Origin: Minisyncoccota bacterium
Lineage (GTDB): Bacteria; Patescibacteriota; Minisyncoccia; Phycocordibacterales; UBA9973
Length of the DNA: 64,000 bases
Assembly (NCBI GenBank): GCA_041660345.1
Contig: JBAZWP010000001.1
Location: forward strand, 1-64,000
Direction: 5' to 3'
Shown here: positions 58,047-59,473 of the stretch, piece by piece
Layout of the letters: each line of letters begins with the position of its first letter
Numbering within the stretch: the first letter of the stretch is position 1
Translations under genes and position numbers: made by a program
The notes under the pieces: model-generated
What the model was told of the DNA's origin: nothing
Databases searched by the model: none
What the model saw: the letters and a program-made list of their open reading frames with translations, nothing else

Positions 58047-58620
58047 CGTTTTTATTATAGTATATTTGATTTAAGTAATTCTTTTTTTCAATCACGAATT
58101 CTTTAACTTCGTCTAATCTTTCATTGTAAGGGTCTGTGTAGAATCCTATAACAACTTCACCTCTATAGTAGTCATAATCATAATTACAAGAAGCTGCCAT
58201 TGATTTAGTGTAAAACCTAACATTATTATTTATATTAGGTAATATTATATAGCTACCATATAAACGGTTTAATTCCATTTGGGCTGTGCTTAAATTTGAC
58301 TTTAACTCTCTGTTTTCTTTTCCTAAATTATCAATTCTTAGTTTTAATGTATGTACACCTTTTTCATTAAGGTAGGGTTCCATACCAATAATGTAACTTG
58401 TTAGTTCACATCTTTCTTTCTGTAATTGGTCGATATATTTATTTTTACGTTGTATTTCATAGTAAGCATAGTCATCACTAAATTTAAATATAATTTTACG
58501 TGCAATAGATAGTAATTGATTTATAAAGAACTCTTTTATTTTTTTAAAAATTACCACTTTTAATTTTATCCTTAATTCTTTTAGTAAAGCTTGGTTTATA
58601 AAATGGGCAATTCTTATCAC
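58015..58620 (-). CDS. hypothetical protein (5' end uncertain, overlaps HisA-like gene)
   Basis: 201-aa ORF; the first ~25 codons overlap the upstream gene, so the true start is probably downstream. Confidence 0.3.
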   Translation of the reverse strand: MIRIAHFINQALLKELRIKLKVVIFKKIKEFFINQLLSIARKIIFKFSDDYAYYEIQRKNKYIDQLQKERCELTSYIIGMEPYLNEKGVHTLKLRIDNLGKENRELKSNLSTAQMELNRLYGSYIILPNINNNVRFYTKSMAASCNYDYDYYRGEVVIGFYTDPYNERLDEVKEFVIEKKNYLNQIYYNKNGDYGRPDYKF

Positions 58621-59473
58621 CGTTTGAAATACGCTCTCTTATATCGTAGTTCATTGTTTTATAATGAGGTGGTGTAATATAGTTATCTTTAAATACCCTT
58701 CGCTTAACAGCTTTATTACATCCAACAGTATAATATTTACACTCTGAACAATACACAGGGCTTTTGAAATTAAGCTGTACTTTATTTTCATAAATTGCTT
58801 TACCAATGATTAACCCATAAAATTCAGATGGTTTATAAGATACTGTATCGTAAAAGCTGCATTTATATATATCGTATTCAGATCCTATACCACCACTTAT
58901 TATAATATTACTACAATATTTTTTTATCTCTAAAGCAGTTGATATATCAGCACCACTTAAAGTACCGTCCTTATTAATGTTAGTGTATATTATTCCACCT
59001 ATTGGTGAATTGAAAAAATTTGTGAACGCTCTAAAATCACATGTACCGTTTGTTTCTGTCCAACCGTGTGTATAAAAAAGGTTATCTTTAAAGTCTAGTG
59101 CTAATAGTACACGATTTCTATAGCGATTTATAACACTCATAACCTGATTTGGTAATTCGGTTAGAGCTGTCCCAAATATAATTTTACTTGCACCATTATC
59201 TAACCACTTAACTGCTTCTTCCGCAGTCCTAATACCACCACCTAATTGAATTTCAGCGCCACTTTCATTTATGATTCTTTTAACTATTTCATCTGATTTA
59301 TCAGATTTCATTTTATCGAGGTTTATTACATGTAAAAGTTTAGCACCTTGTCTAACAAAGTTTTTAGCTACTTTTACAGGGTCATTTGAGTATACTTTAC
59401 CTGTTTCAAAATTACCTTGTGTAAGACTAACTACCTTACCATCTAAAATATCAATTGCAGGTATTATTTTCAT
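58544..59473 (-). CDS. HisA/HisF-family (beta/alpha)8-barrel protein with Cys-rich C-terminal extension
   Basis: MKIIPAIDILDGKVVSLTQG...DP...GAKLLHVINLD...GGGIR matches the HisA ProFAR-isomerase fold motifs; C-terminus adds CSECKYYTVGC...CPFYKP. Confidence 0.65.
   Translation of the reverse strand: MKIIPAIDILDGKVVSLTQGNFETGKVYSNDPVKVAKNFVRQGAKLLHVINLDKMKSDKSDEIVKRIINESGAEIQLGGGIRTAEEAVKWLDNGASKIIFGTALTELPNQVMSVINRYRNRVLLALDFKDNLFYTHGWTETNGTCDFRAFTNFFNSPIGGIIYTNINKDGTLSGADISTALEIKKYCSNIIISGGIGSEYDIYKCSFYDTVSYKPSEFYGLIIGKAIYENKVQLNFKSPVYCSECKYYTVGCNKAVKRRVFKDNYITPPHYKTMNYDIRERISNGDKNCPFYKPSFTKRIKDKIKSGNF

Follow-up and report, generated by a model that had tools for sequence, protein, structure and literature searches.

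The window analysed here is a stretch of 64,000 nucleotides (nt), positions 1 to 64,000 of contig JBAZWP010000001.1 (assembly GCA_041660345.1, deposited for a Minisyncoccota bacterium), and is probably a piece of a phage genome. On its minus strand, at 58544..59473, it encodes a 309-residue protein in which a HisA-type (beta/alpha)8 barrel is followed by a basic, cysteine-bearing tail. We consider it the best explanation, with a probability of roughly 0.55, that this protein is a HisA-family Amadori isomerase captured from a cellular operon, that it still converts N'-[(5'-phosphoribosyl)formimino]-5-aminoimidazole-4-carboxamide ribonucleotide (ProFAR) to N'-[(5'-phosphoribulosyl)formimino]-5-aminoimidazole-4-carboxamide ribonucleotide (PRFAR) or acts on a very similar substrate, and that the tail is specific to the phage. 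The HisA family is known; what is new is the orphan C-terminal module, and the setting is a phage.

A preliminary description of this DNA had proposed an open reading frame (ORF) at 58544-59473 and left its strand unsaid. The ORF is real and complete: it runs on the minus strand from an ATG start to a TAA stop, with 309 codons before the stop, and the same frame of the plus strand is closed by many stops over 58544..59473. NCBI has the same product as MFA5999459.1, a protein with the annotation HisA and the title 'MAG: ... isomerase', which lies on a 64,167-bp contig and forms a one-member cluster (a singleton) among ~15 billion proteins. The Logan assembly of run SRR18595301 is identical to the window over 2114 bp, including the region of the tail; the two assemblies were probably built from the same reads.

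The HisA-type barrel and its cellular relatives

That residues 1-232 (58778..59473, minus strand) form a HisA-type barrel came from Pfam, NCBIfam, AlphaFold2 (AF2) and Foldseek. Pfam family PF00977 (His_biosynth) matches residues 2-232 at 2.4e-55. Among the NCBIfam models, the two for HisA give 197.6 bits (TIGR00007) and 177 bits, and the competing models score lower (HisF 62.6, WbuZ 69.6, AglZ/HisF2 61.2 and hisA-trpF TIGR01919 113.6 bits); every one of these scores is under the equivalog cutoff of its model. A search of PDB sequences returned HisA/PriA at E ~1e-27, followed by HisF at ~1e-12. The AF2 model, built with 81 sequences, has a mean predicted local distance difference test score (pLDDT) of 83.6, with values >90 over most of the barrel. 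Its top Foldseek matches in the PDB are Salmonella HisA (SeHisA; 5ABT, and 5A5W with ProFAR) and PriA of Mycobacterium tuberculosis (MtPriA; 3ZS4 with PRFAR), with template-modelling scores (TMt) of 0.85-0.86. These results bear out the preliminary description, which had proposed a HisA/HisF-type barrel of about 230 residues: HisA scores 197.6 bits against 62.6 for HisF, and the top structural matches are HisA/PriA, not TrpF/TrpC or ThiG.

The ProFAR-isomerase motifs quoted in that description are all present in the ORF, namely IPAIDILDGKVV at residues 4-15, DP at 31-32, HVINLD at 48-53 and GGGIR at 78-82. Conservation was assessed in an alignment of 81 sequences, the query and 80 homologues (A1). 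The query keeps all of its invariant residues: P5, A6, D8, V15, G20, G43, H48, G78-80, D127, G137, W138, T164, D169, G170, G194-195, G224 and Y228. When mapped onto SeHisA (5ahe), D8, D127, W138 and D169 correspond to D7, D129, W145 and D176, and the numbering of the key residues D8, D127, T164 and D169 is identical in the HisA of T. maritima (TmHisA; the threonine is T171 in SeHisA). The codons of the beta-1 catalytic Asp8 (59450..59452), the beta-5 Asp127 (59093..59095) and the loop-6 catalytic Asp169 (58967..58969), all on the minus strand, thus specify residues that are invariant in the alignment, and both catalytic aspartates named in the preliminary description are conserved.

In SeHisA, the catalytic Asp is D176; W145 makes the stacking contact with ProFAR, and the distal phosphate is gripped by R83/S103 (PMC9088769). 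The corresponding gripper in the query is R82/T102, and its second phosphate site, S193-G194-G195 together with G224-K-A226 (SGG ... G-x-A), is also present. With the stacking Trp, the gripper and both phosphate sites kept, the machinery for a bis-phosphorylated substrate of the ProFAR type is, as judged from sequence, complete. We propose that the enzyme would convert ProFAR to PRFAR, or act on a similar bis-phosphorylated N-ribosylamine. By analogy with SeHisA and TmHisA, D8 and D169 would serve as the acid/base pair with the assistance of D127, W138 would stack on the imidazole-carboxamide, and R82/T102, with S193-G194-G195 and G224, would hold the two phosphates. The query thus shares with HisA (EC 5.3.1.16; SeHisA 5A5W/5AHE, TmHisA 1QO2) the barrel, D8/D127/T164/D169, the stacking Trp and the two symmetric phosphate sites, but it differs in being phage-encoded with no other his gene in the window, in scoring under the equivalog cutoff, in carrying five changes at near-invariant positions, and in its tail.

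The closest relatives are 38-41% identical to the query, and its identity to operon-encoded HisAs is 30-41%. Since the nearest relatives that were looked up lie in histidine operons, arranged hisG-D-C-B-H-A-F(-IE) for P0005 and P0006 and hisH-A...F-I for P0008, the gene appears to be one that the phage captured from a cellular histidine operon, that is, a host-derived auxiliary metabolic gene in a phage genome. Ranked by E-value, cellular HisA-HisF fusions come first. In 185,579 species genomes (GTDB) and in JGI metagenomes, scans returned at least hundreds of HisAs at 30-39% identity, in which the N-terminal pattern MKIIPAID is common. The matches listed come from many phyla, with Spirochaetota, Clostridia, Bacteroidota, Thaumarchaeota and cyanobacteria among them, and no lineage can be singled out as the donor; most end at residue 234-235, the longest reaches 271, and none has the tail. 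The GC content of the gene (30.6% in the barrel, 29.4% in the tail) matches that of the window (~30%), which would suggest that the capture is old or that evolution has been fast.

The cysteine-bearing C-terminal tail

The tail comprises 77 residues (aa 233-309; 58547..58777, minus strand), and its orphan character is seen in phmmer, Pfam and PDB searches, in composition and in pLDDT. It holds four of the seven Cys of the protein, arranged as C242-x2-C245-x6-C252-x36-C289-P290 (58607..58750, minus strand), which from sequence is a putative metal site. It is also strongly basic, with 17 K+R versus 6 D+E, a net charge of +11 and a pI of 9.7, whereas the barrel is near neutral.

Several searches agree with the preliminary description, which had held the CxxC...C...CP cluster to be absent from histidine-pathway enzymes. 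The homologue search with the whole protein gave 946 matches; the 120 listed cover ~65-88% of the query, mostly the 76% that corresponds to the barrel, and none of them has the 77-residue basic Cys tail. The other HisAs in the alignment terminate 4-33 residues past query position 235. When the tail alone was used in an exhaustive phmmer search of 1.84 billion representative proteins, only the query itself was found. Pfam gave nothing significant (best zf-POGZ, E=0.078), and the one match among PDB sequences was to the RIG-I C-terminal domain (E=0.51). The latter match joins residues 255-283 (58625..58711, minus strand) to 29 residues of the duck RIG-I domain (4A2V), to which the tail is weakly similar; kinship was rejected, as this E-value is not significant. 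The RIG-I C-terminal domain is a Cys4 zinc domain.

Fusions of histidine genes are known, among them hisA/hisF, hisIE, hisHF, hisNB and hisIED (Fani et al. 2007, PMC1963479). Together with the HisA-HisF fusions among the relatives (P0002-P0004 and P0025), they indicate that HisA can tolerate C-terminal partners. In those fusions, however, the partners are his enzymes, whereas that of the query is a short orphan module rich in Cys and Lys. A comparison of the tail with all 610 stop-to-stop ORFs of the window gave no match better than E=0.15-0.22 and no paralogue, so that nothing points to fusion with a small gene already present. In this 610-ORF database, the N-terminus of the ORF at 37343..37735 (minus strand), NFKGKPVNCVYCDLYSLCPNKFV, resembles the start of the tail, NFKSPVYCSECKYYTVGCNKAV, with 41% identity over 34 residues (E=0.22, not significant); the two may share a Cys-knuckle motif.

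An assembly or indel artefact at the junction of barrel and tail is unlikely, since there is no long homopolymer, HisA homology extends to about residue 235, and the two assemblies agree. In AT-rich DNA, an extension of 74 codons would stay open by chance with P ~0.0016. In the AF2 model, at low confidence, the tail has a beta-hairpin at 240-249 that carries C242 and C245, followed by helices at 269-283 and 294-306, and part of it is predicted to be disordered. As to a metal site, four Cys are available and the CxxC knuckle sits on the predicted hairpin, which is modelled at pLDDT 40-70, and the best Pfam match is the zf-POGZ match given above.

Cysteine clusters are frequent in the proteins of this window. 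We counted 48 CxxC motifs against 6.3 expected (~8-fold over-representation), at least four Cys within 60 residues in 32 of 127 ORFs, and the CxxC-x4-8-C arrangement found in the tail in 14 ORFs. Examples of Cys-cluster ORFs, all on the minus strand, are 56607..56822, 55623..55826, 60607..60813, 62993..63346 and 38506..39081; most Cys-cluster ORFs are small and have no family assignment. The tail therefore looks like another copy of a Cys-knuckle style that the phage uses widely, here fused to an enzyme. We suggest that it would be a phage-specific addition composed of a small CxxC...C...CP knuckle, which would probably bind zinc, and the basic helices that follow. Zinc binding is the most economical guess, and an Fe-S site, of which the CP motif might be taken as a sign, seems less likely. 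The tail would probably serve to stabilise the protein, to help it oligomerise or to dock it to nucleic acid or a partner, rather than to take part in catalysis.

Departures from the HisA consensus and alternative readings

Among the 41 columns that are near-invariant (>=90% conserved among the 80 homologues), the query deviates at five: R16S, V50I, D51N, A55M and N60S. Other HisAs deviate at 0.9 of these columns on average, and five deviations are reached by just one of the 80. All five changes are confined to two places, loop 1 and the beta-2 end with the loop that follows it. Ser16 (codon 59426..59428, minus strand) takes the place of the loop-1 Arg, R15 in SeHisA and R19 in MtPriA, which is Arg in 79 of the 80 homologues; the other four fall within residues 50-60 (59294..59326, minus strand). 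In MtPriA, R19A reduces activity (PMC9088769). In SeHisA, R15S keeps HisA activity and gains very weak TrpF activity, and it is one of just three single substitutions with this dual outcome (Lundin et al. 2020, PMC7591586 Table 1). The query thus has the same Arg-to-Ser change at the same loop-1 position as a single-mutation laboratory variant (PMC7591586), but it is a natural and highly diverged protein. Since the R15S mutant is still active as a HisA, the missing loop-1 Arg weakens membership in the HisA family but does not exclude it. Together, the Arg-to-Ser change and the four changes around the end of beta-2 suggest a relaxed or broadened specificity.

These five deviations, the loss of the loop-1 Arg and the effect of R19A in MtPriA weigh against a retained ProFAR isomerase, and so do several other observations. 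The TIGR00007 score of 197.6 bits is below the equivalog cutoff of 228.95. No partner his genes accompany it in the window, and it is not obvious that a HisA by itself would control flux; the contig is probably a genome fragment, so that the gene context is incomplete. For the tail, the pLDDT is 40-72 in the model of the full protein and 40.5 when it is folded alone; given a background of 1.77% Cys, the probability of at least four Cys in 77 residues is 0.048, which is marginal; and, the protein being a singleton, nothing as yet speaks for conservation across phages or for selection acting on the tail.

Several of these points would fit a barrel that has been neofunctionalised, in which the Amadori acid/base chemistry acts on another N-ribosylamine or on a phage nucleotide or nucleotide-sugar intermediate; we regard this as possible, though unlikely. 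The near-invariant changes are many and cluster in the substrate-facing loop 1 and the beta-2 end, the TIGR00007 score is under its cutoff, and HisA can evolve towards other substrates through loop-1 changes (PMC7591586, PMC9088769). The enzyme might then be linked to the genes for deoxythymidine diphosphate (dTDP) sugars, beta-amino acids and S-adenosylmethionine (SAM) found in the region. That the barrel was recruited for another substrate is the idea put forward in the preliminary description. Genes of the region, all on the minus strand, encode AdoHcyase (47969-49219), MetK (49216-50385), a KamA-family radical-SAM aminomutase (51892-53055; TIGR00238 passed at 324 bits, the best equivalog being lysine 2,3-aminomutase at 443 bits, under its cutoff), dTDP-glucose 4,6-dehydratase (RmlB, 53469-54440; equivalog cutoff passed at 449.9 bits), an R2K ATP-grasp enzyme (55814-56614), a MazG-like pyrophosphatase (61494-61823) and a short RmlA-like nucleotidyltransferase (thymidylyltransferase, 62256-62993). 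No other his gene was found in the window with ten his-operon probes run by phmmer (HisZ-like, HisG, HisD, HisC, HisB, HisH, HisA, HisF, HisIE and PHP-type) and the HisA profile; to this extent the earlier statement that other his genes are lacking holds.

Other evidence speaks against such a shift of substrate. All the ProFAR-specific features tested, including both phosphate sites and the stacking Trp, are intact. Small ORFs without assignment adjoin the HisA gene on either side and separate it from the nearest of these enzymes, ~7 in one direction and ~10 in the other; the ATP-grasp gene is ~1.9 kb away and the RmlA-like gene 2.8 kb. Neither an aminotransferase nor another sugar-amine enzyme was found next to the HisA gene, and no enzyme that would produce a candidate substrate was identified. 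HisA chemistry concerns N-ribosylamines, not nucleotide sugars; the ribosylamine 5-phosphate that it requires does not occur as an intermediate in dTDP-sugar pathways. As nothing ties this chemistry to the dTDP-sugar genes, the earlier proposal that the barrel was recruited for a phosphoribosyl or aminoaldose substrate of the neighbouring pathway finds no support, given the small-ORF flanks and the retained ProFAR features. That a barrel of this superfamily can be recruited outside histidine biosynthesis is known from WbuZ and AglZ/HisF2, which act in glycan modification. The query, however, scores no more than 61-70 bits with the models of those enzymes, compared with 197.6 for HisA, and the window contains no HisH-like glutaminase.

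More doubtful is the idea that the phage has made the HisA barrel into a new enzyme, an Amadori-type isomerase whose substrate would be of the phosphoribosylamine type but not ProFAR; an intermediate derived from a nucleotide, in the modification of phage DNA/RNA or the manipulation of host metabolites, would be an example. Its strongly basic, metal-binding tail would tether it to nucleic acid or to a partner protein and would represent a new family of small Cys modules in wide use in this phage lineage.

That the protein is a PriA-like bifunctional isomerase, with both HisA activity on ProFAR and TrpF activity on phosphoribosylanthranilate (PRA), seems to us improbable. PriA of M. tuberculosis (3ZS4, 2Y85) is an equally good structural match (TMt 0.86), has the same catalytic Asp and would be compatible with relaxed specificity, and S16 is the exact equivalent of R15S, which gives SeHisA weak TrpF activity with HisA activity kept (PMC7591586). 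The TrpF activity of R15S alone is, however, barely detectable, with colonies appearing after 2 weeks (PMC7591586). The query also lacks the hallmark loop-5 Arg of PriA: MtPriA has R143-G-W, in which R143 binds PRA (PMC9088769), whereas the query has H136-G137-W138. Unlike PriA, it lacks the loop-1 Arg as well, it scores far below the hisA-trpF model TIGR01919 (113.6 bits against a cutoff of 306.45), and no trp genes were found in the window. As the loop-5 Arg is absent, the protein is best read as a HisA-type enzyme, possibly with relaxed specificity, and not as a PriA.

A non-catalytic or decaying copy, be it a relic or a binding or decoy barrel whose tail was non-coding before loss of a stop, would fit a singleton without conserved relatives, with elevated divergence at near-invariant columns and a poorly modelled, partly disordered tail, but it is the least probable reading. 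At ~36% identity, relaxed selection is unlikely to have left every catalytic and ligand-binding invariant in place; a 74-codon open extension has a chance probability of 0.0016; the Cys pattern of the tail is shared in style with many ORFs of this phage; and overlaps of 4 and 14 nt couple the gene tightly to its neighbours.

Phage setting and neighbouring genes

The window has ~30% GC, two long co-directional gene blocks and dense small ORFs, and no tRNA was found in it. The gene at 9334..12057 (plus strand) encodes a tail sheath protein of 907 residues (phrog_2839, 2.4e-29; Pfam Phage_sheath_1). It is unusually long for a sheath, and only its C-terminal ~350 residues match standard sheath families. 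Its best tblastn matches are in Tunturiibacter phage Tunturi_5 (308 kb), the uncultured phage LR745208 (485 kb) and Bacillus phage G. As these relatives occur in phages of 300-500 kb, the contig probably covers part of the genome of a large (jumbo) contractile-tailed myovirus.

A genuine phage-embedded HisA looks rare, in line with the preliminary description, which had called a phage HisA-like enzyme uncommon: the protein belongs to no family in a PHROGs scan, and every 'viral' HisA match that was inspected is a cellular his operon. A tblastn search of 50,697 phage records (INPHARED) matched 13, all at <33% identity. The three of the 13 that were inspected (H1, H3 and H4) were rejected as phage hisA: the records are fragmentary or mislabelled, an Acinetobacter chromosome contig filed as phage among them, and the his operons in them are of Bacteroidales type or from Acinetobacter. 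In H1 and H3 the tail seemed to be covered because the alignment read through the stop codon. The records CAKLQH020000003.1, MT836740.1 and MT839518.1, filed as phage, carry cellular his operons, with Acinetobacter msbA and tRNA genes. These three are likely to be bacterial DNA in phage collections, and such mislabelled records would make 'phage hisA' seem commoner than it is. Among the 2.9 million contigs of IMG/VR, a scan with the protein found no relative, and one with the alignment gave two loci, both of which were rejected as high-GC cellular hisA-hisF-hisIE operons. We found nothing in the literature on phage or jumbo-phage hisA, and PADLOC gave no defence-system match for the HisA protein or its neighbours.

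If the captured enzyme is a ProFAR isomerase, the phage could benefit by keeping up flux at the step from ProFAR to PRFAR, which would feed histidine synthesis and the recycling of 5-aminoimidazole-4-carboxamide ribonucleotide (AICAR) and purines. The gene extends the set of amino-acid and nucleotide-node genes known from large phages; should the enzyme be active, phages would intervene at the ProFAR/PRFAR-AICAR branch that joins histidine and purine metabolism. HisA is a textbook model of enzyme evolution, with barrel duplication, HisA/TrpF promiscuity and innovation-amplification-divergence experiments. A naturally diverged, virus-borne HisA that carries a laboratory-selected Arg-to-Ser change and an orphan domain is a natural test case of how a captured barrel drifts or specialises. 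The value of this case is limited by its being one sequence with a function predicted from it. A virus that borrows and decorates a host metabolic enzyme is unusual, not revolutionary.

The gene is tightly packed. Upstream lies a small ORF of 57 residues (59470..59643, minus strand), with a weak match to phrog_7627; its stop and the HisA ATG share 4 nt (ATGA), and the two genes are therefore translationally coupled. Downstream, an ORF of 180 residues (58015..58557, minus strand), called in the Logan assembly with a GTG start at 58557, overlaps the final 14 nt of the HisA ORF; its product is coiled-coil-like and has no family match in Pfam or PHROGs. The best sigma-70-like match of the region (59516..59544, minus strand; ATGACA-17-TATAAT with a TG extension, 11/12) lies within the preceding small ORF, ~43 nt upstream of the HisA start; in a promoter and terminator scan, promoter-like sites were overall at chance level.

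The surrounding genes have features of their own. AdoHcyase and MetK, the enzymes of the SAM cycle, are encoded directly upstream of a 346-residue ORF without assignment, which is followed by the KamA-family 2,3-aminomutase. The SAM-cycle genes, the aminomutase and the R2K ATP-grasp enzyme might together make up a module for beta-amino-acid ligation. The RmlB- and RmlA-like genes are ~8 kb apart, and no RmlC/RmlD or aminotransferase was recognised. An RlaP-type nucleotidyltransferase is encoded at 45911-47005 (minus strand). The ORF at 24347..25564 (minus strand, 405 residues) matches many PHROG families of HNH endonucleases and helix-turn-helix (HTH) proteins, apparently through repeated HTH-like modules, and may be homing-endonuclease-like or regulatory. 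Another ORF, at 29819..32233 (minus strand, 804 residues), has no PHROG or PADLOC match; it contains a Major Vault Protein (MVP) shoulder domain (PF11978, 4.3e-30), a Vault_3 repeat (4.7e-08) and an SPFH/Band_7 match, and an MVP-like protein is unusual in a phage contig.

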